The translations under genes and the position numbers were made by a program. A model generated the notes under the pieces. The model worked only from the letters and a program-made list of their open reading frames with translations, made no database searches and had not been told where the DNA came from. Positions 1 to 19,796 of a DNA stretch of 22,180 nucleotides are shown here, piece by piece. Numbering within the stretch: position 1 is the first letter of the stretch; each line of letters starts with the position of its first letter. This stretch comes from Psammoneis japonica (lineage: Eukaryota). The stretch covers positions 62,001 to 84,180 of the forward strand of contig QPGO01000261.1 in the NCBI GenBank assembly GCA_008632985.1, written 5' to 3'.

Positions 1-1063
1 TGCCTGTAGTAAAACCAGAAAGCGCTGCACTGACTCTTCATAGAAATCGTCGTGTGCCTTGTCCGCCGCCACGACCAGTAAAAAGAGCGACGACGCGTCA
101 TGAATGGTGCCTGCCCGACAGCATAGTCTTGCTGACCGCCGCAGTCATAGACCATTAACGTAATTGGATCATCGCTGTATCCTTCGGGTGCATCTATCTG
201 CACAGGTTCCACATTGAGATAGATGGTCCGTTCCTCCTCACCCTCTGTGCGCGCCGGGAAACGGCCCGCAATGGCATTCCGCAGGCTCGTCTTTCCTGCT
301 TCCCCGTCCCCCACGAGCACCGTCTTGAGCTGTCTGGATGTGGTTGCCTCCCCTTTGTCCACGGCTTCAAAGTAACGAGCAATCGCCCGAGGCCCGTTGG
401 CAACCTCGGGCGGGGGTTCCAACAGTGGATTACCATCCACATTAAAATATTTGCACGTTCCCTCAAGTTTCACAAAGGAGCGTGGAAGTCTTGTAATGTC
501 ATTGTGCTCAATGTCCAGCTTTGGAGATTGACGCCAATGTTGGTTCTTCTAGGCTTTTCCAATGGCCGGCACCCTTGTCTCCAATGGAATTTGTAGAGAT
601 AAAGCACGTCAATGTTTATTCGTTCTAGAGCTTTTCCAAAAGCCACGGCACCCTCGTCTCCAATGGAATTGCTGTCGAGATTAAGCTCCGTCAATGTTTT
701 ATTCGTTTCTAGCGCATTGCCAATGGCCGTGGCACCCTTGTCTCCAATGGAAGTCCAGCCGAGATAAAGCCCCTTCAATGTTTTATTCTTTTCCAATGCT
801 TTTCCAATGGCCGCGGCACCCTCGTCTCCAATGGAATTGCTGTTGAGATAAAGCCTCGTCAATGTTGCATTTGTTTCTAGTGCTTTTCCAATGGCCGTGC
901 GCCCCTCGTCTCCAATTGAATTCCAGCCGAGACCAAGCTCCGTCAATGTTGGATCATTCTCTTGGAAGCGACGAATTTTCTCTTGCTCATTTTGTGGCAA
1001 AGCGACGACCCAATCCGCTGTCACGTCAATGCTGCTGCTGGAACTTGCCGAAGACTGTTCCAT
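1..1063 (-). CDS. LRR-Roc (ROCO family) GTPase, 5' part, runs off the window start; contains frameshifts
   Basis: ATG at 1063 (MEQSSASS...), followed by 28-aa RI/NLRC3-like LRRs (LxxLxLxxNSIGDEGAxAIGxALExNxTL). After indels at ~520-630 a frame not in the ORF track reads KLDIEHNDITRLPRSF..VDGNPLLEPPPEV..AIARYF..LKTVLVGDGEAGKTSL..RTIYLNV..LMVYDCGGQQDY. This gives a P-loop at 311-285 and a Roc G3 motif DxGGQ at 146-132. A further frameshift near 90 is needed to read LFLLVVAADKA. Confidence 0.88.
556..960 (-). repeat. 84-bp tandem LRR-coding repeat, about 5 units
   Basis: The motif TCTCCAAT(G/T)GAA recurs at 909, 825, 741 and 657 (exact 84-bp period) and at 578 (79 bp, a unit with small deletions). 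Confidence 0.9.
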
Positions 1064-1658
1064 GATTTTGAAAACGAGACTTGTTTCCAAGCACTCCTGC
1101 AGCGCCAGTATCTTTTTCGTTTCACTCGAATATTTTGCGCAAGGATGAGTCGTCGTCCGTCACATTCGTTGGCTGCGTTGCCTCTCTGCGATGAAACTGC
1201 TCGAATGGAACGGAGCAAATGTGTTGGTGTATCTGACGAGAAGAGACAGTATAGTATCAAGGATGGGAATGTTATATTGTAAATGGATAATGGCTCTTGC
1301 ACAAGGGTAATGGCGATGCGGTCATGCCACACAAGATCCAAAGATGCCAAATGCCGGAGGAGAAAACGGAAGAAGAACATAAATCCTCATCATTCTCGTG
1401 CGTCAGTGGCGTTTTGCGAACGGATTGATTCTGATTCCTTTTTACAGTTAACTTAGTACAAGAGACTACGTTGAAAACTGAAGAAAAAGGAATCTTGGGC
1501 GAGTGTATCTTTTGATAGATCGTCACCCAATCAAAAAAGAACACCGCCGCACTCGTCCATTCATCACAGCCATCCCCATGCATCAAAGGAAACCCAGTTG
1601 CATCACTGCTGTTGCTCTGCTCTAGCACACATCACACACTCGAAAACAAACAAACAAA

Positions 1659-2685
1659 ATGGGAAAAAAGACAGCTGATGCGAGTCTCAAGGGCAAAAAG
1701 CCCATTCATCGAGGCACTTCAAAGACTGCCATTACGTCCAATCCGGGTCGGATCGGGAACAAGCTGAAACGTTCGGAAATGTACGGAAAGTATCTCATGG
1801 AAAAGAAGCGTCAAAAGAACATGGCTCGTCGCCAACGCGCCAAGGAAGCCGAGGCACTCGGAGAAGAAGCTCCGGAAAAACCCACGCCGCGAACTCTTGA
1901 GAACACGCGAGAGTTGGAACCGACGTTGGTCAAACCACACGATGAAGAAGTTGCTGCCGACCAAGCCGAAAGATGAGTTTGCACCCTACTTTAACGATCA
2001 AGTACGGCCCAAAATCCTCATCACCACAAGACCACGTCCGTCGAAACAGCTCTTTTATTTTATTGCAGACTTGCAACGATTCTTTCCGCAAATGCATTTT
2101 TATCCTCGCAAATCTTTTACAGTCAAGGAAATTTGTGGCTTTGCGGCCAATCGCGGCTTTACCCATTTGATTGTGTTGAGTGAAAAGTCCAAGGTATGCA
2201 ACGGCATGACCATATCCCATTTACGTGTGCATGACGGACACGTGACGGCCGGTCCCACGGCCTTTTTCAAGGTGAGCAATGTCATTACGTCGACGGACGT
2301 TCCCAATCACGGTTCGGCCACTAGTCACATTCCCGAATTGGTCTTGAACGGATTTGGAACACGACTTGGACATCGTGTTGGGCGCTTTTTGGGAAGTTTG
2401 TTTCCGCACAATGCGCAGTTTCAGGGACGGCAGGTGGCAACCTTTCACAATCAGCGGGATTTTATTTTTGTGAGACATCATCGATATGTCTTTGAGCCTT
2501 CCAAGAATATTAGCAAAGAAACAAAGCAACCCAAGACCAAGGCGAGGTTGCAAGAATTGGGACCTCGATTTACTCTCAAGCTCCGGTGGATTCAGGAGGG
2601 TACGTTTGATACCATGTTTGGTGAATATGAATGGATTCACAAGCGCAAAGAGATGGACACGACGCGGAGAAAGTTTCACTTGTAA
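1659..2685 (+). CDS. RPF1: Ribosome production factor 1 (Brix domain), with one +1 frameshift
   Basis: ORF 1659-1976 (IGNKLKRSEMY..PRTLENTRE..DEEVAADQAE) joins ORF 1897-2685 (DEFAPYF..PKILITT..PTAFFKVSN..PELVLNGFGTRLGHRVGR..FHNQRDFIFVRHHRYVF..LQELGPRFTLKLRWIQEGTFD..RRKFHL). Removing one A from AAA at 1969-1971 gives ADQAEDEF. Confidence 0.95.
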
Positions 2686-4095
2686 GATTCTAGTGTTGAC
2701 GGTAACTCAGCTGATGATTGTTAATGATCTAGTCTTTGTTAGTTTTTTTAATGTAGTGCTGTAATGCTAAAGAATGTGGACACGAATTGGAAATGACCAC
2801 CAGTTGGATCGCTGTCGTATGTTCGAGATGCCGCCGCCGTCTTGCACCATTTCGTTAAGTCATACGAGACACTGTCTTCTGCCTCGTCTCGTGTCAAGGC
2901 TCGTTCTTGTCCACCAAAACAAAATGCTATGTGCGGCCCACCAATGCGATTCAGGATCTTGCATCATGCTTGTTCCTTCAACTCATTCAAGGAATTCAAC
3001 TTGTGCCCTCCAACCTTGCAGAATGCGGTCCTGCACACAGTTGGAGAGCACTTGTGCTTGACTTGATGGCAGTGGAGGAGATTCTCCGTTGATTGCCTCA
3101 CAGTCATGTCACAGCAAGATTCAAGGGTGGCTGCAGAGTTGCAAATGCTCTGGAGCAAGACACGATGGATTGTTGGGAGGATTGAAAATGTGTCTCGCCG
3201 TTGACAGACACTCAAATTGCAATTGTGGCCCAAAGACAAAAGTGAGAGTTGGGTGGCACTTGGCAAAACAAGCATTGGTGACAATTGTCAAGAGCACAAC
3301 AGTCATGTGGTGCTCCAACCCAAAAAGAGCTCACCTGGAAGGGTGCCACAAAAAAAGTGCAGGAAGGAGTGGAGGGGTGCATCATTTTGCTCTTGCAATG
3401 AAAAACAGAACAACAACAAAAGCAATTGTTCTTTCTGTTTTGCCCTTTCCTTGCTTCCAGGCTGCTGCTCTCATTGTGGCCCAAGCAAGAATGAGCTGCA
3501 GGCACCAAGGTTGCAGGGTTGGTGGGTGGCGGGCTGGTGCAGCTCGCGGCATGCTGCTTCACGCGCCATCAGCCATGCAGCAGGCTGCACAAAGGATGGA
3601 GAGATGATGATGGGCTCCAGCTCTCTGCAACACGCAAGAGGAGCCTCAAGGGTGCTCACAATGAAGCTGCAGTCTCTGGAGGTGAACACTCAAGTTGGCC
3701 AATTTGTGGGGGCTGTGCATCTGACACAGACATCCGAGATGGGGAGCACACCCCCTTTTGCAAGACAGACTGGCATGGACAGGGTGAAGAGATCCGATGA
3801 TCTCTCCTTTGCTCACTTTCTTTCTCCTCCAGTGCATGATTGCCATCTGTCCTAGATGTTGTTAGATTGTCCCAATGCCAGCAGTCTGCAAGGTCATGAG
3901 CAGCAGTGCGCTGTTTTTGTCTTCCTCAATGCAACCACATTTCAACACCCACTGTGTGGTTCGGCGGTGTTTCTCTGTTGAAATCATCGTCTTTGTCACA
4001 GCCTTTTTTCTTTCTTGATTTGTGATCATCACAACCACCATGGAACACAAACCAGTGCTCCATGCAGGATTTTGATTTTTTTTTCCTGAGCAACC

Positions 4096-6239
4096 ATGGT
4101 CAACAAGAACACAGCTGCCATCGATTTGACCAAGATCAAGCCAACATTGGTCAACCTCACACCGGAACATTGCTTGCCCGATGCCCATTGTTTTGCCTGA
4201 ATGAGCTTCACTCAGACAAGACACCTGCTCCTGAAGATCTTCTGGATGAGTTCACTCCTCCCAACCTCAAGAGCAGTGCTGTTGCAACTCTCTTTCACAA
4301 AGTTCTTCAGGAGGATCTCATCATCCCAAAAGCTGCACTGACCAAAGATCTTGCACAGATTGCAGTGCTTGTGGAGAAGGCTGCTCTCTTTGTGGCTGTC
4401 CCTCAAGGTTCTCCAATTCACCTGAACCACACCAATCTTCACAAGGCTGTGATCAAGGCAATCTCAGACAATCAGGACACCACGATGACCCATGTTGGGA
4501 TTGTCTGTCTCCATTTTTATGCTGCTTTTCAATCTTGTGAATGTTGGAATGATGTGTGTGATGCTCCATGCCCAGAACCTTCTGCTGCCCCAAGTTCATC
4601 ACCTTTGCCAGCTGCTGCTGCAGGTTTCACTCCTTGTGACTTTGCCAAGGCCTTGGCTGCTCTGCCTGGTCCAAAAGACTGTGAGAATGCCACAACCAAT
4701 GCACCAAAGAGCTCTTCATCCCCTTCCAAATCTTCTGCCACAACCCTCACCCCATCAAGTGTCCTTTGCACCTTCAACCCAAAAGGATTGCCCACAGATG
4801 CACCAGCGCATTGCCAACACAAAGAAGATGGAAAGGTGATTTTAGGAACTTCACTCACCCGCTGCAAGTCTGGAAACCTCTGCTGTGAAGATGGGCTGAA
4901 TGTCTCATGCTTGCTGGTGGCTCTCTTTTTGTTCATTGTGCTGGATGGGATGCAAAATCCTTCCTGCAGGATCCTCTTGCTTGCAATGACATTTCTCCTC
5001 AAGGAATTGTGCATTGCACACTGCTGCAACTCAACAAGCCACCATGGCATGTGGCACGTGCATGCATCCCCTCTGGTGTTTTATCAAGGATGGCAGCAAT
5101 TGGGGGTTTGCAAGTGGCAATGATCCCACTGATGACCTGCAGCTTCAAATGTGGGGCCCACTTGATCAGATGAAATGGACTGTCTTTCAGTGCATTCAGA
5201 AGGTTGGACTTTTTTCTGCTGACTCCACGTGCCCTGACATTGTTCACCAATGTTGTGGAGATGGACATGCCGCTCTCAAGATGATCCCATTTGATGTTCT
5301 TCCTGTTTGGACAAAGCTTCCATTCAACTCATCACAAGCCACCAGCACCAGAACAACCTTGCTGTTGTCAGCTGCCATGCTCTGTCCCAAGACTTCCTTC
5401 AACTTCAGGCAATCATCTCCAATGTTGATGCATCCCTTTATGATCCCAGTGAGCTTAATGTTTTTCTCAGCAATGCCTGTCATGTTGAACGTCTCCACTG
5501 CAAGACTGCTGAAGCCCATGAAGACAAGAACAAGAAGCGTCAGTTTGCCCAGCAGAAGATTGTTGAGACTGTTGCTGTGCTTCTCAAGGAACCGGATGGT
5601 CCTGCTCTCTGTGTGACTCCTCCCCAAGTGTCCACCACATTGCATGCACAATCAGACCCCTTGCCCACAAGTGAATCCTCCTTTGGTGGCACCCCTCTGC
5701 AGTCTTGATTTGCCAGCTGCTGATGATCCATCTGATCAGCTGACTGATGCTGAGAAACCCTCCATGGAGCTGTCTCCTCCTCCAGTGGAAGTGCCCCCTG
5801 AAACTGTGGAATTCTTTGTCAATGAACACTTGCTGCCATGGAGGTGCCCAGGATGATGAAGCACAGGTGCTGCATGGTGTGTTTCCAAGGCTTGTGTCTG
5901 TGGGCTCAAGGCTGCACCATCCCTTGCACAGAATTGTCCTTGCCTTGTTTGTGGTGGTGACCATTGCTTTGCTGATTGTCTGGTGCCAAACAATGCTGAG
6001 TGCTTGAAATCTCACCTCTCATCCAATTTAGCCAATTTCTTCAATGCAATCAGTGTGCTCAAGCCACATTGCTTGGGGCTGACAAAACCAAAGAGGATGG
6101 CTCTGCTCCCTTGGATTGTTCTTGGGGCCATTGTCACATTCAGATGTGCAATGCCACCCATCCACCACCAATCTGAAACCACCACATTGCCAGCAGGGCA
6201 ACTGTGAAAGAGAGTCCAACCGATTCATCACCTTCCGCT
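4096..6239 (+). mobile_element. Outer Ty1/copia element A, degenerate gag region (left of the nested insertion)
   Basis: A fragmented reading frame starts at ATG ~4096. It includes DIVHQCCGDGHAALKMI and ALSQDFLQLQAII..ELNVFLSNA, resembling diatom copia gag, and a zinc knuckle CLVCGGDHCFADC (CX2CX3HX4C) at 5941-5979. A tentative short LTR-like TGTTG...CAACA lies at 3857-3947. Confidence 0.7.
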
Positions 6240-6488
6240 TGAGCAAATTGTGATGCATCATGTGGAGTCTGGTGTGCTGTGTGCTGTTGCACATCAGACA
6301 TCAGCAACAGTTGTAGCTCAGTCAACTGTTGAGATGTGGTGTTGGAGCAAAACTTGATGGGTCATCCTTCAATGGTGCTCACTTGTTGCACACAGTCGCA
6401 ACAGGCCTTGGAGCATCTTTGGGATTGTTGTTTTGTTGTCATGCCACCACTGTGAGTGGCTGAGCCATCATGCAGCTGGATTTGCTTG
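6240..6488 (+). repeat. LTR 1 of element B
   Basis: Similar to 8980-9229 and 11716-11957. Starts TGAGCAAAT and is followed by a PBS-like motif. Confidence 0.9.
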
Positions 6489-6500
6489 CTTTGTCAGAGC
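6489..6500 (+). promoter_or_regulatory. Primer-binding-site-like motif (second copy at 9230-9241)
   Basis: CTTTGTCAGAGC lies directly after the LTR. It resembles the tRNA-Met PBS TGGTATCAGAGC with TA->TG, but the match is only partial. Confidence 0.55.
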
Positions 6501-6723
6501 CACAGTCCACACTCAAAGGTTTTTTGGTTGACACATGATGACAAGCATGAAAGTTGATGGTTGTGTCTTGATGGCACAGTTCCAATGACAACTGCCGACT
6601 GGCTTGAGGGTGCACACCAATGAGCATTGCCTGGCATCAGCGCATGTGCAAAGCAGTGTTTTGACATGATTCTTCTGACACAATGGCTGCTCTCTCTTGA
6701 TGTTTGATGACTCAGGTTTCACC

Positions 6724-7950
6724 ATGGTGGCTTTGCCTCCAAACCCAATGGAAACAGTCCTCAACTGTAACTGGATCAGTTTTCAGTTGCCTGCTCAGCG
6801 CAATGCTGTCATGACCAATGCTGCTGCATTTGATGGTGTCGTGGACATGAAAGAGTCCAACATTGATGTGCTTGCATTGTCCCACGCAAGGAGGACTGCC
6901 GCTGAAGGGCATTGTCACTTTGGATTGGCTTGAACCCATTGTCTCAAGTCCTCAATCCATTGGGTGCAGGATTTTGAATGTGCAAGCAAAAATCTGACCA
7001 TTGATGGTTTGGATCAGGTGAGGTTCCATGATGCACTGTCTGCCACTTTCACAAGGGCCAAGATTTGCAACCAGATGAGGGAGCAATCCAAGTCTGTTGC
7101 TTGTGAGGCATCTCTTGGACTCTTGGAGAGCAACAAAGGCTTGGGCAAAATGGAGTGCTGCCTTCAAGAACAAGCAAGCAGTGGATCAAGGAGCACCGCA
7201 ACAGCCAGAATGGTCATCTTTGCTGCAAGTCACTGGAGAACCACTGCAAGGGCAAGGGCAATGCTGCCTGTTGCATCTCGGAAGCTGAGCATCCAGAGAG
7301 TGCTCTCTGCAGCAGAAGTGAGCATTCCATGATGTTTGAGATGTTTGTCATCAAGCTTCAGGAGATGTTCAACATTTTTGAGGAAAATGACAAACCCAAG
7401 ATGGAGGCCCAGAAGCTGTGCTTGTCATTTGACAAGGTGCAGCACCAGCAACTGCAGAACACTGTGGAGACCCTGAAGGTGCAGAACAAGTTTGGAGGTG
7501 GGATCACTTTTGCCACTGCATGCAACCATCTTGCCACAAAAGTTGCTGCACTCTCAGAGACAGTTGCACACCATTGTGTGATTTCTTCTCTTGCGTCCGG
7601 AGTCAGCAAGGAAGGTGATTCCATTTGCAATGAAGATGGATCCATTGACACTGGATTTGACAAGAACTGGTGTCAATTTAGCAAGGAAGACAAGAAGAAG
7701 GTTGTGGACAAGTGCTTGTGCCTGGGACTCAAGAAGAAGCCAAGCAACCCAAAGCATCATGCTGCATCCGTCAAGTTGCTCAAGGAGAAGAATCGGAAGC
7801 TGTCATCCCAGCTTGAACAAGTGAACCACACTGTTTCTTCCCTCAGCACTGGCAACAGCACTGACACTGCTGCAGACAATGCTTTGGAAAGAGGCAGCAA
7901 AGGTGGCAACAATGCTGGAGATGTGTTTGGGGGACACCAGAACAAGTTGA
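6724..7950 (+). pseudogene. gag of element B, copy 1 (copy 2 at ~9463-10685)
   Basis: MVALPPNPMETVL..HFGLA*THCLKSSIHWVQDF..KQWIK..SLENHCKGKGNA..MFEMFVIKLQEMFNIFEE..ITFATACNHLA resembles diatom CoDi gag. It contains stops, frameshifts and internal deletions. Confidence 0.8.
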
Positions 7951-7957
7951 TTGCTGT

Positions 7958-8910
7958 GTGATTTTTGACATCAAGTTGGGAGAGAACTTTTGGCGCAAGA
8001 GCAGAATGGTGGTGGGTGGTCACATGACTGATGCCCCATCTGCTGTCACCTGCTCCTTGGTTGTTTCCAGGGATTTGGCAAGGATTGCTCTTGCTCTTGC
8101 TGCACTCAATGACTTGGAAGTGTTTTTGCCTGCGACATCCAGAACACCTGCTTGACAGTGTCATGCCAAGAAAAGACATGGACTCATGCTGGCGAGAGTT
8201 TGGTGGGGAGAGCAGCTCAATTGTGGTGGCATTCAGGGCTTTCTTGGTGGAGACGCTTTGTGATCCAGGGTGCAAGCCCAGTGAGGTGGACCCCAATGTT
8301 TGGATGCAACCCGCAGTGAAGCCAGATGGGTTTGAGCACTGCAAGTGCATCTGGTGCACATGGACAATTTGTTGTCAATCAGTCACAAGCCAATGAATGC
8401 CATGGATGGGGCATCAAGCTAAAATTCAAGCTCAAGGACAACAAGGTGGTGGAACCGCCCCGACTCCTGCTTGGGTGCTCAGTTGGCAAAAATGGACTTA
8501 GCTGACAGCACCACTTGCTGGATGATGTCAGCAGAGGCGCATTTTCAGGCAGCAGTTCAGAATGTTGAAGAGAAGTTGGCCAAGCAAGGGAAGAGATTGA
8601 TGATCAAAGCTTGCGCACCCCTGAGCAGTGGACACAAGCCGGAGCTGGACACTCTGGGTGAACCAGATGCAGAAGGTCTCAACTGCTGCCAAGAGATGAT
8701 TGGCATTTTGGTTTGGGCAGTGGAATTGGGTGGAGTTGATGTCCATCTGGAAGTCTCCATTGTGTCAGCTCACCTTGCCTTGCTGCGCATTGGTCATTTG
8801 GAACAGGCATTGCATGTCTTTGCACATCTCAAACAGGTTCCAAAGCATTGGGTGGCATTTGATCCTCCACATCCGGTCATTGTCAAGACCAGATTTCAGA
8901 AGTGCAATGT
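7958..8910 (+). pseudogene. Copia reverse transcriptase fragment of element B, copy 1
   Basis: IFDIKLGENFWRKSRMVVGGHMT..VVSRDLARIALALAALNDLEVF..AFRAFL..DPNVWMQPAVKPDGFEHCKCI-LVHMDN (YVDD site at 8357-8368)..HKPELD..CCQEMIGILVWAVELGGVDVHLEVS..GHLEQALHVFAHLK. Protease, integrase and RNase H are absent. Confidence 0.92.
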
Positions 8911-8979
8911 GACTTGTGCGCTGGTTGAATTGTGTCCATCAAGTGCATCCTTGACTTGTCAGAAACATTTCAAGAGGAC

Positions 8980-9229
8980 TGAGTAAATTGTGATGTGTCA
9001 TGTGGAGTCTGGTGTGCTGTTGCACATTGGACATCAGTCATTGATGGATGGAGCTCGCTCAGTCAACCATTGTGATGTGGTGTTGGAGGGAAACTTGATG
9101 GGTCATCCTCCAATGGCACTCACTTGTTGCGTGCAGTTGCAACAGGCCTTGGAGCATCTTTGGGATTGTTGTTTTGTTGTCATGCCACCACTTTGAGTGG
9201 CTGAGCCATCATGCAGCTGGATTTGCCTG
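8980..9229 (+). repeat. LTR 2 (central, shared, chimeric) of element B
   Basis: Preceded by the PPT-like CAAGAGGAC and followed by the PBS-like motif. Its 5' part matches LTR 3 and its 3' part matches LTR 1. Confidence 0.9.
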
Positions 9230-10692
9230 CTTTGTCAGAGCCACAGTCCACACTCAAAGGTTTTTGGTTGACACATGATGACAAGCATGAAAGTTGATGG
9301 TTGTGTCTTGATGGCATGTTCCAATGACAACTGCCGACTGGCCTGAGGGTGCACACCAATGAGCATTGCCTGGCATCAGTGCATGTGCAAAGCAGTGTTT
9401 CGACATGATTCTTCTGACACAATGGCTGCTCTCTCTTGATGTTTGATGACTCAGGTTTCACCATGGTGGCTTTGCCTCCAAACCCAATGGAAACAGTCCT
9501 CAACTGCAACTGGATCAGTTTTCAGTTGCCTGCTCAGCGCAATGCTGTCATGACCAATGCTGCTGCATTTGATGGTGTCGTGGACATGAAAGAGTCCAAC
9601 ATTGATGTGCTTGCATTGTCCCACACAAGGAGGACTGCCGCTGAAGGGCATTGTCACTTTGGATTAACTTGAACCCATTGTCTCAAGTCCTCAATCCATT
9701 GGGTGCAGGATTTTGAATGTGCAAGCAAAAATCTGACCATTGATGGTTTGGATCAGGTGAGGTTCCATGATGCACTGTCTGCCACTTTCACAAGGGCCAA
9801 GATTTGCAACCAGATGAGGGAGCAATCCAAGTCTGTTGCTTGTGAGGCATCTCTTGGACTCTTGGAGAGCAACAAAGGCTTGGGCAAAATGGAGTGCTGC
9901 CTTCAAGAACAAGCAAGCAGTGGATCAAGGAGCACCGCAACAGCCAGAACGGTCATCTTTGCTGCAAGTCACTGGAGAACCACTGCAAGGGCAAGGGCAA
10001 TGCTGCCTGTTGCATCTCGGAAGCTGAGCATCCAGAGAGTGCTCTCCACAGCAGAAGTGAGCGTTCCATGATGTTTGAGATGTTTGTCATCAAGCTTCAG
10101 GAGATGTTCAACATTTTTGAGGAAAATGACAAACCCAAGATGGAGGCCTAGAAGCTGTGCTTGTCATTTGACAAGGTGCAGCACCAGCAACTGCAGAACA
10201 CTGTGGAGACCCTGAAGGTGCAGAACAAGTTTGGAGGTGGGATCACTTTTGCCACTGCATGCAACCATCTTGCCACAAAAGTTGCTGCACTCTCAGAGAC
10301 AGTTGCACGCCATTGTGTGATTTCTTCTCTTGCATCCGGAGTCAGCAAGGAAGGTGATTCCATTTGCAATGAAGATGGATCCATTGACACTGGATTTGAC
10401 AAGAACTGGTGTCAATTTAGCAAGGAAGACAAGAAGAAGGTTGTGGACAAGTGCTTGTGCCTGGGACTCAAGAAGAAGCCAAGCAACCCAAAGCATCATG
10501 CTGCATCCGTCAAGTTGCTCAAGGAGAAGAATCGGAAGCTGTCATCCCAGCTTGAACAAGTGAACCACACTTTTCTTCCCTCAGCACTGGCAACAGCACT
10601 GACACTGCAGACAATGCTTTGGAAAGAGGCAGCAAAGGTGGCAACAATGCTGGAGATGTGTTTGGGGGACACCAGAACAAGTTGATTGCTGT

Positions 10693-11648
10693 GTGATTTT
10701 TGACATCAAGTTGGGAGAGAACTTTTGGCGCAAGAGCAGAATGGTGGTGGGTGGTCACATGACTGATGCCCCATCTGCTGTCACCTGCTCCTCAGTTGTT
10801 TCCAGGGATTTGGCAAGGATTGCTCTTGCTCTTGCTGCACTCAATGACTTGGAAGTGTTTGCCTGCGACATCCAGAACACCTGCTTGACAGCATCATGCC
10901 AAGAAAAGACATGGACTCATCCTGGTGAAGAGTTTGGTGGGGAGAGCAGTTCAATTGTGGTGGCATTCAGGGCTTTCTTGGTGGAGATGCTTTGCGATCC
11001 AGGGTGCAAGCCCAATGAGGTGGACCCCGATGTTTGGATGCAACCCGCAGTGAAGCCAGACGGGTTTGAGCACTGCAAGTGCATCTGGTGCACATGGACA
11101 ATTTGTTGTCAATCAGTCACAAGCCAATGAATGCCATGGATGGGGCATCAAGCTAAAATTCAAGCTCAAGGACAACAAGGTGGTGGAACCGCCCCGATTC
11201 CTGCTTGGGTGCTTGGTTGGCAAAAATGGACTTAGCTGACAGCACCATTTGCTGGATGATGTCAGCAGAGGCGCATTTTCAGGCAGCAGTTCAGAATGTT
11301 GAAGAGAAGTTGGCCAAACAAGGGGAGAGATTGCTGATCAAAGCCTGCACTCCCCTGAGCAGTGGACACAAGCCAGAGCTGGACACTCTGGGTGAACCAG
11401 ATGCAGAAGGTCTCAACTGCTGCCAAGAGATGATTGGCATTTTGGTTTGGGCAGTGGAGTTGGGTGGAGTTGATGTCCATCTGGAAGTCTCCATTGTGTC
11501 AGCTCACCTTGCCTTGCTGTGCATTGGTCATTTGGAACAGGCGTTGCATGTCTTTGCACATCTTGGGCAGGTTCCAAAGCATCGGGTGGCATTTGATCCT
11601 CCACACATCCGGTCATCGACAAGACCAGATTCCAGAAGTGCAATGTGA
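10693..11648 (+). pseudogene. Copia reverse transcriptase fragment of element B, copy 2
   Basis: Near-identical to 7958-8910. ACDIQNTCLTA corresponds to the copia DIxNAYL motif, and HMDN is at 11091-11102. Confidence 0.92.
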
Positions 11649-11715
11649 CTTGTGTGCTGGTTGAATTGTGTCCATCAAGTGCATCTTTGACTTGTCAGAA
11701 ACATTTCAAGAGGAC

Positions 11716-11957
11716 TGAGTAAATTGTGATGTGTCATGTGGAGTCTGGTGTGCTGTTGCACATTGGACATCAGTGATGGCTGGAGCTCAGTCAACCGTTG
11801 TGATGTGGTGTTGAAGGGAAACTTGATGGGTCATCCTCCAATGGCACTCACTTGTTGCAAGCAGTTGCAACAGGCCTCAGAGCATCTTTGGAAACATTGC
11901 GTCATCATCACACTGGCGCTGTGAGTGGCTGAGCCATCATGCAGCTGGATTTGCTCA
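11716..11957 (+). repeat. LTR 3 of element B
   Basis: Starts TGAGTAAAT after CAAGAGGAC, ends ATTTGCTCA, and is followed by the TSD CGCT. Confidence 0.9.
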
Positions 11958-11961
11958 CGCT

Positions 11962-14050
11962 GAACTGCCTCTTTCCCACGCATCATTTGCTGACATTCTT
12001 TTGGATTTGAAGAAGTCAAGCACTCCAAACATTGCAAAGATTCCTGATGATGACACTGACATTGTGAAACAGGGGAGGGATGACACTCACCTTGCTTCCA
12101 TTCAACATGATCCATCTCTCCCACTGTCCAATGACACCCACCAAGACTTTGAACATTTTGACATGTCCCAACATCAACACTTGTCTCCATTGAATGCTGC
12201 TTGCATCTCCCCCATCCTTTCTCTGCTAGATCCTCCTGCCCAGTTTCCAACTGTGGATGCTCTGGTTCTCCCCATCAACCACATGCTCAGTGATTCTGTG
12301 ACACATCATGCACAGATTGACATGGGTGCTTGGGTCTCATGTGCAGGGCACAAGAACCTTCTCCACGCTTGTGGACCTTTTGGTCCTGACAACCCATGTC
12401 CCTTGAAGATGTTGCTTGCAGTTGAAGGATCTGATGCAGTGCCTCATGGCTTTGGTTGCTTGCAAGCACCTGCAGACAATGCAGACAGCTTTCTCCTTGT
12501 GTGCACCTTTTGCCATCCAAGTCTGCATTCTACCTTGATCAATGAATGTGATTTTGGATGAGCTCCTGGTTTGCCAAAATTAGAAAACATTGCATCTGAA
12601 GTCATCCAGAAGACATGTGCTGACAGTGCTTGCATGTGTGCAGCAACAACTGCTGCCAATGCACCCCCAGCAGTTGCTCATGGTGTTCTCTGGCATGGCA
12701 AAGTTTCCACCCAAGCGTTGGTCCCTCCTTCCATGACACCCACACTCCCAACACCACTGGCATCTCTTTGTGATTCTGCCACTGATTTTGAAGATGCATG
12801 TCCTTCCATGACACCCACACTCCCAACACCCCCAGCATCTCTTTGTGATTCTGCCACTGATTTTGAAGATGCACGTCAGTGTGCAGCATTTTATGTTGAT
12901 GTTCAACAAGAATCTGGAACAGACCCCTTGGTCAACACTGAGCTCTTTTTGATGCAATGCCACTCTACACCATCACCCACACCAGCCCTCCATGTTTCAA
13001 CTCCTGTTTGGTCATTGAAGGTTGAGACTGAACATCTTCCATGGCACCAGCATCTTGGTCATCCAAGTGATCATCACTTGTGCAATGCTCACAAGTGCAT
13101 CAAAGGTGTCCCAAAGTTCCCCCATGAATGATCAGCTCTCAATGCTTGTCCAATGTGCATTCAAGCAAAACAGGCCTCTGAGAATGAGGATTGTGCATCT
13201 GACTGTCTTGGGTTTGATGGCGAAACTTGTTAGATGGCAGTGTGTGTGCACCATTCCTGCGCATTTCATGGTGCAGCACAGGTCTCAAAAAAGCCAGCCC
13301 TTTCAAGTGGCTTTGCCAATTCCTGGACTGACATTTGCCAAATTTTATGACAAACATGCATTTGTGGACCAAGGTGGAGAATTGCACAAGAGTTCAAAAG
13401 TTTGTGACCACTTCCAACACAAAATCTAGCATGACTTGTGTCCTGCAGGTGCTGGAACATCCAGTCAATGTGGACCTGTTGAATGCTCACATTTGACTGT
13501 TGAGAATGCAGTTCATGCATTTTTGATTGTTGCCAATCTTCCAATTTGATTTTGGCCCTGTGCTTTTTGTCACTGCCTGCAAATCAAGAGTGCTGCTCCC
13601 ACCAAAGATCAAGATGCAGCACCCATCACACTGTTGCCACTGGCAAGGTTGATGACTTCACTGCTCTGAAGACTTTTAGCTGCCAAGCATGGGCACTGCA
13701 ACCATCAGAATTGTCCAGCTCAATTCAAGACAAATTCCAAGAAAGGTGTCTTCCTTGGTCATCTCCCCAACACTTTGAAGAATGTCTCATGGTGAGATCC
13801 AGTGACTGACAAGGTCAAAACAGTGAAAAACGTCCACTTTGATGAGGGCATGAATGACTTGCCATCAGATCACCTCTGCCCAATGCTGCTCATTTGCAAT
13901 GCATGGAAAATGGCCAAGAATGTCTTCCAGCTGAAACCCAGGAGACCACGGTTCCCATGTTCACATCACCCTTGAATCCTTTTGCCAAGACTGTTGCATG
14001 TGCCATGAAATGCCCTCCAAAGGATCCCACCTGTGGTTTTGTGGTGAAAT
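11962..14050 (+). mobile_element. Outer copia element A, degenerate protease and integrase (truncated before RT)
   Basis: Protease HAQIDMGAWVSC (DTG->DMG at 12319-12327). GAG-pre-integrase WHQHLGHPS..GVPKF and CPMCIQAK. Integrase core AFVDQGGELH, SSQCGPVEC and FWPCAF. SH3-like LKTFSCQAW..KGVFLGH..VHFDEGMNDLP. Confidence 0.88.
12727..12873 (+). repeat. 75-bp in-frame tandem duplication (2 units)
   Basis: Units start at 12727 and 12802 and encode PSMTPTLPTP(L/P)ASLCDSATDFEDA. Confidence 0.95.
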
Positions 14051-14364
14051 GCAAACTGAGTCTGGTGTGAAATGGCGGAAGCTCAGCTCCCTGATGTGAA
14101 AGAAGCAATGCGGTCCACCAAGATCAAATGGTTGTGTGATCCCAGGCCAGTCATGAGCAAAAAGGTGCAGCACCCTGGTCTGCTGTCAGGCACAAGACAT
14201 GCCAGTCTGTGTGGAGCTCCAGGTGGCTCAGACTCAGGGGTGAGTCAGCCAGGTGGTGCAGTTGCTCTCCATGGGTGGGCTGGTGGCAGCACTCTGGCAT
14301 GCATGGAAGCAAGCTGCAAGCCATGCCCCATGGCAGCGCAAGGGCTGGCCAATGCCCAAATTGA

Positions 14365-15400
14365 TCAACGCACACATTGACTCACTCTTTGGCTGAAAAG
14401 GGGCCCAAAACACTGAGGTGGCTCCTGTTTTCCAATGAAGCAACAATGTCTTTCCTTCAACACATCCAGCTTTCTTAAATTTCCCATCTTCCAACTTGTT
14501 CCAACACACTCCTGCTGCTTGCACTGATGATGTTCTGCACCCTGACATTCTGGTTCTGCATTTCCTTGTGGGATGTCAACATTGTGCCCATCAGGTGCAT
14601 CAGTTGTTTTGATGCTTTCATCATGGCGACCATTTGGTTGACAAAAATGTGGACCAAGCTGACTGCCAAATGCACTCATGATCTTGCACACTTGATCCAC
14701 AAAATGCTTCATGTGATCAGCCACCAAGCCAAGTTTTCTCTTGCACAGCATCACTGTGCAGACCATTTGCTGTCATTAGCTCCATTGCCCAGCCATTGCT
14801 GACAACTCTGCTGCCCAATTCAAAGAACTCCAGATTGTGGCAAGTCCATTCTTTCTTGGGCCTTGCTTCAATGGTTTCATGTTTGAAGAATTGTGCCAAC
14901 TTTAAAGCATCACCGACAACTCCATTGTTGTCTTGCACTGACCCAAATTGAAACCTCTTCTTGTCCATGGGCCAATTGCTGGCATGTTCTGCAAGAGGTT
15001 CACATGTCTCAGCAATCCATGCCACATGTGGGACAACCTGATGTCAACATCCTGCCCACACAGAAGACATCATTTGTGGTCAATGCAAAATGAAATTTGT
15101 TGCAAAGACATCCTGCGATCATTGCCATGGCACATTCTGTCAGGTTGGCCTCATGGCAGAATCCTGGCTTGTGACATTCAAGTCTTTGGATGCAGGCTTG
15201 ACCTCCAATGAGCTGCCAACATTCCTTGGTTTTCTGTGCTGCTCTTGCATGGCCCTGAACTGTGGCCATTGTCTCCTCTCCATTGTCAAATGAGGAGATC
15301 ATCAGTGCAGCAGCCAGTGGGCAGGAATCCTGTGAGGCTTCCCACACTTGCCTTGGATGCTTGTGCAGCTGTGGGTTGCCTGCAAAGAGTCGACTGTGCA
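14365..15400 (-). pseudogene. Unknown protein family relic, copy B
   Basis: Paralogous to 15440-16690: AAQKTKECWQLIGG / MIAGCLCNKFHFAL / SGCPTCGMD / FQFGSVQDNNGVVGDALKLAQFFK..EARPKKEW..LEFFEL / VQAAGVCWNKLEDG. Confidence 0.6.
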
Positions 15401-15439
15401 ACCTTCAAACCAGTGACACAACAATGTGATGTGATGCAA

Positions 15440-16690
15440 TTGCACCCAATCAACAATCCTGATGTGCCAAATGATTCACACTCCAAAGAGTGAGAACAAC
15501 AAAACAGATGTGTGTCCAATTGGCAACAATGTTTTTCTTTGATGTCAACAAGTCACCACATCTTTTGGCATGGCAGAAGCTTCAATGTCTTTTCTTCAAC
15601 ATGTCGGGGTTTCTCAAGTCCCCATCTAACAACTTGTTCCAACACACTCTTGCTGCTTGCATCAATGATCTGGCATTTACATCTTGGCTTTGCAGCAACG
15701 TTTGGGATTAAAATTTCCCCAAACGATCCTTCCCATGTTGCGAGCACTTCAGTTCTATCAACATGGCAATTCAGCAATTCACACACCAGTGCTCCACACC
15801 TTTGTCATTGAAGTTAAGAAGCACATCGAACTCATTTGTCATGCATCCCACCACATCAACAAAGCTCTTCACATGGGCACCATGTGAGCCATCCTTGCAC
15901 TTCATGATTGTGCGGACCCATGTCACTGACAAAGCCTGTCATCCATTCATCAATTCTCCATGGATGCAGCTCACAGAATTCCATCTTGCAACAGCCCCAC
16001 CTTTGTCTGGGCCTCAGTTCAACCACTTTACACTGGAAAAATTGTGCCAGCATCAAAGTGTTGAAGACAACTCTGCTGTCATCTCTCACCAAACCAAACC
16101 GCCAATGTGTCTCATGGTCATGTTGGTTGGGTGCACACTCCATCAAGAGCTCACATGCCCCACATGCATCCATGCTGCAGGCAGGGCAGCTCACTGTTGA
16201 CCATTCACTGAGTTGGTTGATGTCTTCCTTGTCAAGGGCAAGTCTGAACTTGTTGCCCCTTGCTCCTGCCATCATGTTCTCATCAAACTTCTTCTGAGGA
16301 AACACACCATCATTGTCACAACAGCAAGTGCACACCCAATGCAAGGCTTTGCCTCCAACCATTTGCCAATGCTCCTTGGTCTTGTGTGCCTCTCTCACAC
16401 ACTCCACCATTTTGCACCACACCTGTGTTCCTTCTCCAAACATGGAGATCATTGGTGCAGTGGCAGACATGTGCTCACATGCATCTCTTGTCCTCTCCTT
16501 CCTGCAGCCATGTGTCTTGCACACTGTCTTAAATCTTTCTGTCCACAGCTCGTGCCACTTTGCTTCAAGCTCCTTTTTTCTCATCTGGCACTCCGGTGAA
16601 GTGATTCCATCCAAACTTTCTGTCCTCAGCAAATTCCAGCAACAACAACCTGAAATCTGCCAACTCCCATCAGACATGCAGGTCACCAGG
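15440..16690 (-). pseudogene. Unknown protein family relic, copy A
   Basis: EAHKTKEHWQMVGG / MMAGARGNKFRLAL / VSCPACSMD / WRFGLVRDDSRVVFNTLMLAQFFQ..ELRPRQRW..MEFCEL / MQAARVCWNKLLDG..CFVVLTLWS. Confidence 0.6.
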
Positions 16691-17103
16691 TGTTGTCATG
16701 CACATGCTTTCCACAAACAAGCTGTGATCTTCCAGTGCCTTCTGGCAGTCTTGATCTTGGCATTTCTTTTTTTTTGGCTTCCAGCAGTTTGCTCAACACC
16801 TCAAACTTTTCCAAATGCAGCCTCAGCCACTGTCATGAGAGTGCATTGTGCACCTCCTAGAAATCTTGCACTCTGCCTGGCTCATCAGGCAGCAAATTGG
16901 TGTCGTGAACAGCAGTTGACATCATGGTCATGGCCAAATCAACAATTGTGATTGGTTGAGCCATGTGGATGAACACAAAAACAAAACCAAAATTCCATCT
17001 TTAAAGTGCTGCTGCACTTCCACCCCGCAACTCCGGCAACAAGCTGGCCCACACCCCCAGCACACTGACAGTGCGGCAGGAGCATGTGGCAATTGGCCAA
17101 GAT

Positions 17104-17127
17104 CGGCATCGTCCGCAGACGATGCCG
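17104..17127. repeat. Perfect 10-bp inverted repeat (hairpin)
   Basis: CGGCATCGTC-CGCA-GACGATGCCG. Confidence 0.85.
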
Positions 17128-17253
17128 TGCCAAAGTGACATGTGAATGAACACATCTTCTGGACTCAACACATCATTGCAACTTCTGGGTTGCAGGGTTC
17201 TTTCACCCACACACATCAGCATTCTTGTGTCACAGACAGGAGAAACTCTCCTG

Positions 17254-17853
17254 TCACACTTGACAGCCCATGATGGCTTGTTTGAACTTTTGAAGCTTCT
17301 TGCCCTTCAATGGCTCAGTCATGAAGTCTTGAACCATGTCATTGGCAGGACATCACTCCACTCTGAGACTGCCTTTCTTGAGCTGGTTGGTTGCAAAAAA
17401 AAAGTTGACTGTTGAGTGCTCTTGACCTCTTGCATGCACTCTTGCGCCCGCCAGCTTCCAGAAACATGGTGCTCTGTTGAACTGCCTCACTTTCTTTTCC
17501 TTGTGGCAGCCTGACTTGTCTGCTGCTGGCACCACCATGTCAATGTTGTTCTCAATGTTAGCCTTTTTGCACTGAAGCTGTTGCAAGCCATGTCTTCAAT
17601 GGACCTTGCCAGATGTGTGCCTTGAGTGCACTCCTTCTGCATGCACCTCACACAATCTTTTCCTTGACATCTTCAAAGGTTGCATTCCAAGAATTGCTGC
17701 TCAGTGATGAAGGGCAAAACTTCATCTCAGATTGAAAGCCTTTCTTGGCAGTGGTCTTCTCCTTGCTTGAGAGGACCTGTGACTTTTGTCACCCTTTCTG
17801 CGACCACATCATTGGCCTTGGTTGTTGCTTCTGCTGCTTCTTCTTCTGCTCAT
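17254..17853 (-). mobile_element. Mini copia element C: gag N-terminus joined to RNase H C-terminus
   Basis: ATG at 17853 (MSRRRSSRSNNQGQ), then EMKFCP..ATFEDVKEKIV (gag-like start). After ~17480 it reads SAMFLEAGGRKSACKRSRALN..FFATNQLKKGSLRVE*CPANDMVQDFMTEPLKGKKLQKFKQAIMG, the copia RNase H end (KHIDIR/ADxxTKPL region). A 9-bp-stem hairpin at 17235-17255 overlaps the stop. Confidence 0.78.
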
Positions 17854-18079
17854 GTTGCAGGCCCTCTGTGATTTGTTAACTGCAGGTGGCAAAAAATTGA
17901 CAAGCACCAACACAGTTGTGATGTTGACTCTTTGGGGTGAATGTTGAACCAGCAAGTCAATGGCACCAAACCAGAATTCCACACGGCTTCCTGTGCTCTT
18001 GTTGTTCTTGCTTTGGCTGCTTGTGTGGCTGTGGGTTGCCTTCAAAGCCGTCTGTGCAAATTTCAAACTTGGAATGTAA

Positions 18080-18290
18080 CAGGTGCCCAAAGATGCCAAT
18101 GCAATGCAATCATGTTTTCTTGACAAACCAAATGAATTGCTCCAAAGATTGAGAACAACAAAACAGACAGAATCAGACCAGTGATGGTGCATTTTTCCTC
18201 TCAAAGAGTTGCAGCATCCACCATGCAAGGAGCAACAACATCTTTCCTTCCACTTGTTCCAACAAGACTTCACACAAATGTCATGTCAAC
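18080..18290 (-). pseudogene. Unknown protein family relic, C-terminal fragment (copy C)
   Basis: SCWNKWKERCC..CFVVLNLWS. The DNA CTCCAAAGA..GAGAACAACAAAACAGA is shared between 18140-18167 and 15481-15508. Confidence 0.55.
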
Positions 18291-19796
18291 ATCAACCTTT
18301 CTCTTTCTATGAACACATGGGAAGAGGAGTCATTGGTTTGCAAATTGCTGAAATGAAGCTCAAAACACATGAGGACACTCATGATTCAGGCAAAACAGCC
18401 TAAAACCCAAAAAACCAAGAGCAGGCGAGGGCTGTTGTATTTTCTGCTGTTGGTCAGATCTCATCACTTCCTTTTTGATCTAAAGGCCCTTCACACAAAG
18501 AGAAAATGGCCAGCTCATTGCTGCCACCTGGCACTGTTGCCATGATGAGCACTTGCAATGGCACAGATGTGCCGGAGGCCAGTGCTGCAGCTGCTGGGGA
18601 TCTGCCACTCTGACTGCAATGAAGAGCAAACTCACCACCACCAGAGATAATTTGCCCTTGTTGCTTTGCCACAGACCAGAGAGGACATGCCATTGTGGTG
18701 CACACAAAACATGTCCAAAATCACCTTTGCAAGTCTCCAGCCCACAAACTCACATGTGAGCCACCCTCAACTTGCCTCAACAATGCACCCATGCACAGCC
18801 ACAGAGCTGATTTGGTTGAACAAGCCCTTTGATGAAGATGCAATCACAGAAGTCATTGTTGCTCCACAGCAACAAGAGGTGACAAACAATCTGTCAGCCA
18901 CACTTTTCCCCTGCTGAGCAAAGAAAAGTGCAGGCATTCTTGGCTCACAGCCCAGAGAGTGTGCTGTCATTTTCTTTCATGTCAAATGTTGAGTCAGACA
19001 TCCAGTCCAAAGACCATTTCTTCTGGTGCATTTTCCATGGCATCACTTTTTCTGTCTTTTAAGCTGTGCCAATCCTTGTTGCCAGAGACCTTGGGAGTGA
19101 GATGGACTTGGATTCCTGCAACAAAATGATCAGCCTGCAGCATGAACCTTGCATTGCTGAGTGCTTTACATCCTGAGGCTGAGGACTTGTGGGAGGAGCA
19201 GGTTGGGAGCACATCATCTGTCCTGATGCAGCAAGTCAGTTGTGCTGGACATTGAGTTGTGCAAGGACAATGACATTGGGTGTGGCCAGATTGCAATAAA
19301 GTAGCAAGGACCATAATAGCAGAGAAGTATGGAATCGTTCTCTTCTTTTCAATTTATGGTGAATGTAAACAGTTCGTTGTGTTTGCGAGTTCGTCGAAAG
19401 GTTCTTCAATCAAAGTGTACCCACGGCAGTAGTTCCGAGCTTAGCGACTTTCTCTACATAGCTCTGGCGTTGCAAGGACCTGCGGAAAGTATAGTTCAAA
19501 GTTCCGTTGGCTCGTATACAAGCGCGATTTTTAAAAGTGGTATTCTGAAAGCTAATAAAAAAAGGTAGCCGTCCTGAATGCTGTGCCGAGAAGAAAGATG
19601 CTTTAGATACTGCCTCTAAAAGTTGAAATTAGAAAGGTTGAAGAGTCTTTCATTAGGCCATTCTCTCTTCACCCTCTAGTGTTGAGTTAAGCTCAAAAGC
19701 TAGCTCTAGACAGAGAGACAGAGGAGCAGGTGTCGATCGGTCGATCGATTACTTTAGCGTTGCTACGCATCCGCACTGCAGCGCCGGCGTAACAGG

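Follow-up and report, generated by a model that had tools for sequence, protein, structure and literature searches.

Targeted point mutation as a defence against transposons is known only from fungi, where it acts on cytosine only; the described case is repeat-induced point mutation (RIP) of ascomycetes. Comparable traces are left by the decay of methylated CpG in vertebrates, plants, and other organisms, by the hyper-editing of retroelements by APOBEC3 and ADAR, and, in their choice of target DNA, by the modified thymines of dinoflagellates (5-hydroxymethyluracil, 5hmU) and kinetoplastids (base J). Here, we describe a stretch of 22,180 nucleotides from Psammoneis japonica (assembly GCA_008632985.1, contig QPGO01000261.1, positions 62,001 to 84,180 of the forward strand; hereafter the window, numbered from its first letter). 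It contains a 16.4-kb block of transposon remains, among them a small Ty1/copia derivative, from which TA and CG dinucleotides have largely disappeared, a pattern that known genome-defence processes do not account for. We consider it probable that this DNA underwent a dinucleotide-specific transition hypermutation that was confined to transposons, followed insertion, and struck TpA and CpG on either strand, leaving CpA or TpG.

The locus resembles RIP in that the changes are transitions with a dinucleotide preference, are sharp-edged within transposon or repeat DNA, would have affected integrated double-stranded DNA on either strand, and abolished coding capacity. As in RIP, paralogous copies ended up different at target sites. 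However, RIP converts CpA to TpA, which raises TA and lowers GC, whereas in the block TA is erased and GC stays at 48%. Moreover, 20 of the 53 events that could be polarised (see below) are TA to CA or TG, i.e., A:T to G:C, which is impossible for a cytosine deaminase or methyltransferase. RIP also requires a RID-type methyltransferase and a premeiotic stage. Diatoms possess a protein related to RID, DNMT4, whose function is described as not known (PMC9998398).

Methylated-CpG decay matches the locus, as a sequence pattern, in its CG products, strand symmetry, restriction to transposons, and continuation after duplication, but here TpA was removed too, and more completely than CpG. APOBEC3 and ADAR hyper-editing likewise inactivates retroelements through transitions, yet it acts on one strand of RNA or cDNA and its products are one-sided and clustered, whereas the changes described here are balanced and unclustered and the terminal repeats are discordant. 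ADAR prefers an A that follows U, giving UA to UG, and the enzyme is not known outside animals. Base J and 5hmU are modified thymines of repeated or silenced DNA, and base J sits in the TpA of telomere repeats. For 5hmU, early work on Crypthecodinium described a preference for TpA and TpC (cited in PMC11071213), PMC11071213 itself describes no sequence preference in Breviolum, and a link to transposon silencing is described in PMC11572971. In contrast to the locus studied here, neither mark has been linked to a loss of TpA by mutation, and our data do not indicate thymine modification in diatoms.

The altered DNA was delimited with dinucleotide profiles:

2930 to 19296 (16,367 bases, no strand): block poor in TA and CG, with degenerate transposon remains and sharp edges

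Within the block, the observed/expected ratio is 0.047 for TA (51 observed, 1087 expected) and 0.138 for CG (132 observed, 958 expected), with CA at 1.83 and TG at 1.87. The left flank has ratios of 0.44 (TA) and 1.04 (CG) and the right flank of 0.65 and 0.95. The intergenic DNA at 2686–2929 is normal right up to the block (TA 0.69, CG 1.14): TA occurs every 10 to 30 bases until 2928 and then not again before 3853. At the right edge, dense TA resumes from 19297 and CG from 19336. Both borders can be placed to a few bases. Pyrimidine-purine (YR) steps make up 24.2% of all dinucleotides in the block and 23.7% in the flanks, and the reverse transcriptase (RT) region differs from 62 relatives by −4.2% in TA and −3.8% in CG, against +3.2% in CA and +4.3% in TG. 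As the YR share is unchanged and the loss is matched by a gain, TA and CG were converted rather than deleted.

The TA that remains is uniform along the block (mean 1.5 and variance 1.4 per 500 bases), and its 51 occurrences are about the number that ordinary transitions at the 3776 CA/TG sites would have produced since a purge. Thirty of the 51 are preceded by T and only one by A, which reflects either a resistant context or a route by which new TA arises. A survival of CG in islands was considered and dropped, as the numbers of remaining CG and TA in 500-base intervals nearly follow a Poisson distribution. Stop codons are affected as well, with 10–18 TAA plus TAG per frame compared to 101–169 TGA; because TA is gone and only TGA stops are left, the block holds long chance open reading frames (ORFs), e.g., 4026–5120 (365 codons).

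The preliminary description of this DNA concerned one short motif, the RT active site, which it read as EHCKCI-LVHMDN and ascribed entirely to TA and CG transitions:

8334 to 8368 (+): RT active-site stretch of copy 1, EHCKC(I), a 1-base deletion, and LVHMDN, where EYYEYILCYVDD is expected

The letters are those described (GAG CAC TGC AAG TGC AT, the 1-base deletion, then CTG GTG CAC ATG GAC AAT), and the same string with the same frameshift is found in a second copy at about 11068–11102. At the aligned position, the relative P0008 has FEYYEYILCYVDD, and P0015 and P0001 have FKYYEYILCYVDD where the window has FEHCKCI / LVHMDN (P0001 in pairwise alignment). All seven replacements are TA to CA, TA to TG, or CG to CA, as had been proposed, and three of the seven span a codon junction; the pattern is far beyond chance. 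The intact form given in that description, LVYVDD, needs correction to LCYVDD, which is what the relatives show. Its claim that the direction of change is fixed holds in the alignment to intact relatives, where Tyr goes exclusively to His or Cys. It had further argued for inactivating mutation and against codon bias or an alternative genetic code, which is borne out by HMDN in place of YVDD, the common frameshifts, a 13-residue deletion, and a TGA at an Arg column. What it understated was the scope, since the motif is real but is one sample of the 16.4-kb block. It had also extended the rule to a protease motif (DTG to DMG) and an RNase H motif (TKPL to TEPL); the strings exist, DMG at 12319 (+) and TEPL at 17319 (−), as string locations without homology support, and no protease or RNase H domain was detected around them by any homology search run on the window.

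A similarity search with the frame 8351–8980 (stops entered as X) returned six polyproteins of 1289–1408 residues, all with PF07727 (best match: E 7e-47, 52% identity). Further RT searches gave 53 near-length matches for an N-terminal piece, 48 of them with PF07727, and 2027 proteins at E ≤0.001 for a C-terminal piece. The Pfam RVT_2 model itself found no match, even at E up to 1 for a 206-residue RT piece. The HMDN that replaces YVDD, the frameshifts, and the loss of 13 residues mark this RT as a dead remnant of the Ty1/copia RVT_2 family.

The fate of conserved residues was followed codon by codon, with a mirror-image rule (AC/GT) as a control for the TA/CG rule. We counted a column as conserved Tyr when at least four of six homologues have Tyr there. 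All 11 such columns of RT copy 2 are changed, five to His and six to Cys, so that the tally suggested in the preliminary description, the fate of each conserved Tyr codon, gave His or Cys throughout, with no Tyr and no other residue. The in-frame parts of RT copy 1 have His or Cys at 7/7 columns, and a comparison of copy 2 with 56–66 relatives translated from metagenome loci gave the same picture (10/10 Tyr columns; His 5, Cys 5). Conserved Arg residues of the RT are kept where they are coded by AGR, and the others became Trp, Gln, Gln, and Cys; two CGC codons persist. Similarly, the 13 conserved Arg columns of the gag-like ORF in copy 1 now read His (4), Cys (5), TGA (1), AGG (2), and another codon (1), with the TGA stop located at 6931 and, in the second copy, at 9670. 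The loss of Tyr codons and of most CGN Arg codons, the new TGA stops, and the destroyed RT active site thus follow from TpA/CpG conversion.

Of the 82 RT columns without variation among the six homologues, the window has kept 60 and has changes at 22; the TA/CG rule can derive 16 of the 22, compared to five for the mirror-image rule. Over 316 conserved columns, RT copy 2 is identical at 205 and mismatched at 111, and the rule accounts for 53 of these mismatches as uniquely polarised events (CG to CA 18, CG to TG 15, TA to TG 11, and TA to CA 9). These replacements also bear on the idea that an active element was selected to avoid CpG and UpA, in the way that many RNA viruses escape host sensors and nucleases. 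Joint suppression of the two dinucleotides is a viral pattern described in PMC2707012, but a working element would change only silent sites, whereas here conserved residues, including the catalytic motif, were destroyed and stops were created, and we regard this explanation as extremely improbable.

The RT belongs to a tandem array in which positions 6240–9226 are repeated at 8980–11954 (95.7% identity, period 2740) and the first 250 bases of the unit are present a third time at 11716–11958. Its parts are as follows:

6240 to 6489 (+): direct repeat r1, left terminal repeat resembling a long terminal repeat (LTR), from repeat comparison
6721 to 7946 (+): remnant of a gag-like first ORF, copy 1, directly adjoining the RT (tblastn, E down to 6e-39)
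7898 to 8983 (+): RT remnant, copy 1, with at least three frameshifts, from homology to RVT_2 proteins
8980 to 9230 (+): direct repeat r2, a chimera with an r3-like left part and an r1-like right part, from column comparison
9460 to 10674 (+): second copy of the gag-like ORF remnant (tblastn, with ORFs taken from metagenome relatives)
10633 to 11644 (+): RT remnant, copy 2, in frame +1 to 11091 and in frame +3 from 11085
11716 to 11958 (+): direct repeat r3, right terminal repeat, 81% identical to r1 as read

Repeat r2 agrees with r3 at 23 of the 27 informative columns as far as column 176, and from column 188 onwards it agrees with r1 at all 28. The chimera marks an unequal crossover between a pair of direct repeats that had bounded one internal region, and the order repeat-internal-repeat-internal-repeat is the product of this exchange. 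Neither a hidden Markov model built from six full polyproteins nor tblastn with 121 ORFs, which were taken from 80 metagenome loci, detected a protease, integrase, or RNase H of the small copia derivative; the gag-like ORF and the RT of a single element were all that these searches recovered.

The array allows the changes to be ordered in time. LTRs are identical when an element inserts, and r1 and r3 now share 81% identity as read but 91% when CA, TG, TA, and CG are treated as one symbol. They have CA against TG at 12 of 64 common YR sites, and one repeat column holds three states (TG, CA, and CG). If r1 and r3 are true LTRs, such discordance means that these sites were resolved independently after integration, in DNA. 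A rough estimate from the YR make-up of intact relatives predicts about 11 discordant sites if TA and CG both resolved independently and about five if CG alone did so, compared to the 12 observed.

The two internal copies had the same outcome at 7/7 comparable Tyr sites, and RT copy 2 has the motif, the frameshift, and the loss of 13 residues from a conserved stretch in common with copy 1. It follows that the TA purge was complete before the crossover. Of 696 YR sites compared between the copies, 633 are concordant CA or TG and 16 are CA against TG, while CG is found in one copy at 23 sites and in both at 16, and TA in one copy at four and in both at four. Given the four TA sites present in both copies, the TA process may no longer be acting. 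Three of the four CA/TG discordances within the RT polarise to CG ancestors in our reading of the alignment (TCG Ser at 8058, GCG Ala at 8159, and CGG at 8480), and position 7323 reads CAT where 10062 reads CGT. Together with the 23 sites with CG in one copy, these cases indicate that CpG decay went on after the crossover. At non-YR sites, the copies differ at 44 of 1489 positions (3%), and 20 of the 44 differences are transitions, so there is no general excess of transitions.

Between the two copies, further differences are seen. At 8830–8833 and 11564–11567, one copy has T followed by AAA and the other T followed by GGG, and at 6927–6928 and 9666–9667, TAA faces TGG. Such runs of A/G differences behind T exceed a simple TA rule and might reflect processive changes of adenines. 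In addition, copy 1 has GCTTG at 6486, 6604, and 8611 where copy 2 has GCCTG (9227, 9343, and 11345), i.e., three separate differences in one context.

The balance of outcomes bears on editing before integration, in which an ADAR-like activity (A to I) and an APOBEC-like activity (C to U) would have hyper-edited the RNA or cDNA in the course of retrotransposition, so that the copies were mutated when they integrated. Edited retroelement copies are described from vertebrates (PMC4866542), and a TA purge that is complete, uniform, sharp-edged, and older than the tandem duplication would fit such a history. The share of outcomes that went to CA is 0.42–0.45 (RT versus relatives), however, and both targets are two-sided in the counts given above. 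Runs tests on the 53 events found no clustering under two strand pairings (25 runs versus 27.4 expected, P 0.29; 29 versus 27.2, P 0.73), nor did they separate adenine from thymine as the base altered at TpA, being non-significant under either pairing. Balanced outcomes without runs disfavour editing of a single-stranded RNA or cDNA intermediate. Furthermore, r1 and r3 would be copied from the same template in reverse transcription, yet have opposite states at 12/64 YR sites, and the whole block was purged on both strands, including parts without a detectable retroelement gene. We therefore regard editing before integration as unlikely.

A purge of this kind is not intrinsic to the RT family, as the composition of its relatives shows. 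All 80 metagenome loci with relatives have a TA ratio of at least 0.41 (median 0.66) and a median CG ratio of 0.96, they contain no 1-kb window with TA under 0.31, and none of the loci kept is a depleted copy, all being of normal composition. One locus, L040, has moderately low TA (0.44) and CG (0.38) with CA/TG at 1.5, evenly over its 5 kb, and may represent either an intermediate stage or a different host composition.

These values also set the scale for ordinary slow decay, by which loss of methylated CpG and a generally scarce TpA would account for a block that is simply old. Decay of CpG to TpG and CpA in methylated transposons is an established process, diatom transposon methylation is reported in PMC9998398, and TA is below 1 already in the flanks (0.44–0.65) and in the intact relatives. 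In the block, though, TA lies below CG and about 14-fold under the intact relatives, and no known spontaneous process removes TpA by transitions faster than methylated CpG. In addition, the RT has kept 60 of its 82 invariant columns and most of the changed ones follow the rule, the copies diverge by 3% at non-YR sites with no transition excess, and TA in the intergenic DNA stays at 0.69 up to the edge. Slow decay is accordingly, in our view, an improbable account of the whole pattern.

A technical artefact, in which modified CpG and TpA bases were miscalled or mis-polished in a long-read assembly, would be limited to modified DNA and would produce transitions. Base-calling errors at methylated motifs are known from nanopore consensus sequences. 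We found that a public run, X1, contains 0.90 of the sampled window words, and its unitigs (word depth 94–104) have no differences from the window over 2885–3817, 4212–5435, and 5409–6477, the first of which spans the left edge of the block. Letter-for-letter agreement over several kilobases at about 100 reads disfavours an artefact at modified bases, as do the common frameshifts, the 39-base deletion, and the rearranged gene order in the copies, and the presence of similar Tyr-free fragments in JGI, ENA, and Logan assemblies. An artefact is thus very unlikely.

In X1, 167 of 269 contigs are 90–95% similar, so related copies exist elsewhere in that genome. Over the left flank at 2400–2840, X1 contains a second allele at higher depth (e.g., the other letter at 2439 in 220 of 310), while the depth of the block is about 100; the block may lie on only one haplotype. 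Another run, X2, whose kind is not recorded, covers the flank at 2400–2688 and not the block, and we drew no conclusion from it. No RNA run containing the window sequence is listed among the public runs.

Fragments with the same signature are present in environmental protein sets. Tyr is absent from three of the 53 near-length matches to the N-terminal RT piece (P0034, P0042, and P0054), and nine proteins among the best 150 of 2027 representatives matched by the C-terminal piece are Tyr-poor (below 1% Tyr, compared to a median of 4.2%). The nine come from JGI/IMG, ENA, and Logan records, one of them on a 32-kb contig. At seven conserved Tyr columns they have His 29 times and Cys 17 times, with Tyr (2), Phe (2), and Arg (1) making up the rest (46/51 His or Cys), whereas normal matches have Tyr at 500/594 of the same positions. 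Yet other conserved residues are kept (Trp 100%, Gly 100%, Arg 85%, Asp 79%, and Leu 77%), and the pattern of His and Cys varies among the nine. The His/Cys signature thus recurs in several RT lineages in environmental data. Scans of viral_contigs with P0054 and the RT piece of the window found no match.

Several observations weigh against a transposon-confined hypermutation after insertion. As many as 58 of the 111 mismatches at conserved RT columns lie outside the rule; these are ordinary divergence or decay, which also happened. Four TA sites were kept in both tandem copies. The 12 discordant repeat sites do not distinguish TA from CG ancestry, and the estimate of about five for CG alone is rough. 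The view of r1 and r3 as true LTRs, which would have been identical when the element inserted, derives from their position and the chimera and not from canonical ends or a target-site duplication, and the outer ends of the block likewise have no target duplication. The confinement to the block was seen at one locus, X1, a run with no recorded library type, is possibly the assembly's own sample, and the Tyr-poor public proteins could share the species of the window. Lastly, the analysis revealed no enzyme, no modified base, and no signal for targeting.

We nevertheless favour hypermutation after insertion, and propose that the block is a nest of dead transposon fragments that would have been altered on double-stranded DNA. 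TpA and CpG are both self-complementary pyrimidine-purine steps, and each would have been turned into CpA or TpG with about equal chance for either strand. A copia derivative of about 3 kb, consisting of a repeat, the gag-like ORF, an RT fragment, and a second repeat, would have inserted first; TA would then have been purged essentially to completion and CG largely, and a later unequal crossover between the terminal repeats would have built the array while CpG decay continued. For the CpG half of the pattern, the probable cause is that 5-methylcytosine was deaminated in methylated transposon DNA. The half at TpA would call for a second, so far undescribed activity, possibly deamination of the adenine in TpA to inosine, which is read as G, or alternatively a mutagenic modification of thymine, e.g., oxidation of its 5-methyl group by a TET/JBP-type enzyme. 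Because the edges of the block are sharp, we propose that silenced or repeated DNA is targeted, which could occur through repeat homology, small RNAs, or a chromatin domain, as in RIP.

The more specific idea, that diatoms, or this lineage, possess a RIP-analogous but chemically distinct defence that erases TpA and CpG in inserted transposon or repeat DNA through an activity making A:T to G:C changes at TpA of nuclear DNA, either a DNA adenine deaminase or mutagenic modification of thymine, alongside 5-methylcytosine deamination at CpG, is put forward tentatively, at somewhat short of an even chance. There is a substantial chance that a new DNA-editing activity is involved. A literature search found no description of TpA loss in transposons, although its journal coverage was incomplete, which makes this weak evidence of absence.

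The block is bounded by unmutated genes:

470 to 1090 (−): gene for a leucine-rich repeat (LRR) protein, left flank, from a domain match
1897 to 2685 (+): gene for ribosome production factor 1 (Brix domain; PF04427, E 4e-28), unmutated left flank and control for normal composition beside the edge
20219 to 22180 (−): open frame with a TIR domain, unmutated right flank, from a domain match and flank composition

The named homologues of the Brix protein are all from diatoms (Ditylum and Thalassiosira oceanica 76%, Fistulifera 71%, and Chaetoceros 63%), which identifies the window, by protein similarity, as diatom DNA; an Atlas search with the Brix ORF yielded no taxon. The LRR gene has internal direct repeats of about 75–170 bases at 438–958 (77–83% identity), presumably leucine-rich repeat units. 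The parts of the block outside the array, 2930–6240 and 11958–19296, gave no match with Pfam, the hidden Markov model, or tblastn. Weaker internal repeats that appear when YR steps are collapsed (14438–15314 with 15577–16464, and 15325–15604 with 17974–18257) aligned too poorly for use. A 75-base tandem duplication at 12726–12877 is 94.8% identical, or 98.7% with YR steps collapsed. The read-through at 12900–13130 (+) resembles the beginning of a copia integrase with its zinc finger (W-H-x-H-L-G-H ... C-x-x-C), a likeness unconfirmed by any search.

DNA in which TGA is the only stop can mislead gene prediction and the annotation of repeats, as it yields chance ORFs and escapes the annotation of transposons by Pfam. 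In the block, neither the six-frame read-through (in chunks of 2000 residues) nor the 102 ORFs of at least 75 residues matched any Pfam family (0/102 ORFs). In genomes with such DNA, repeat content is probably underestimated and gene counts overestimated, and Tyr-free fragments are already part of public protein sets. If our reading is true, the products of the process would be transposons that are invisible to standard domain models and Tyr-free "hypothetical proteins" in marine metagenome catalogues. The removal of TpA by A:T to G:C changes would then indicate that a major group of marine algae has a DNA-editing or DNA-modifying activity not yet described, and natural enzymes of this kind would be directly relevant to base editing. 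It would also suggest a function to seek in those diatom proteins that are related to the RIP methyltransferase of fungi.

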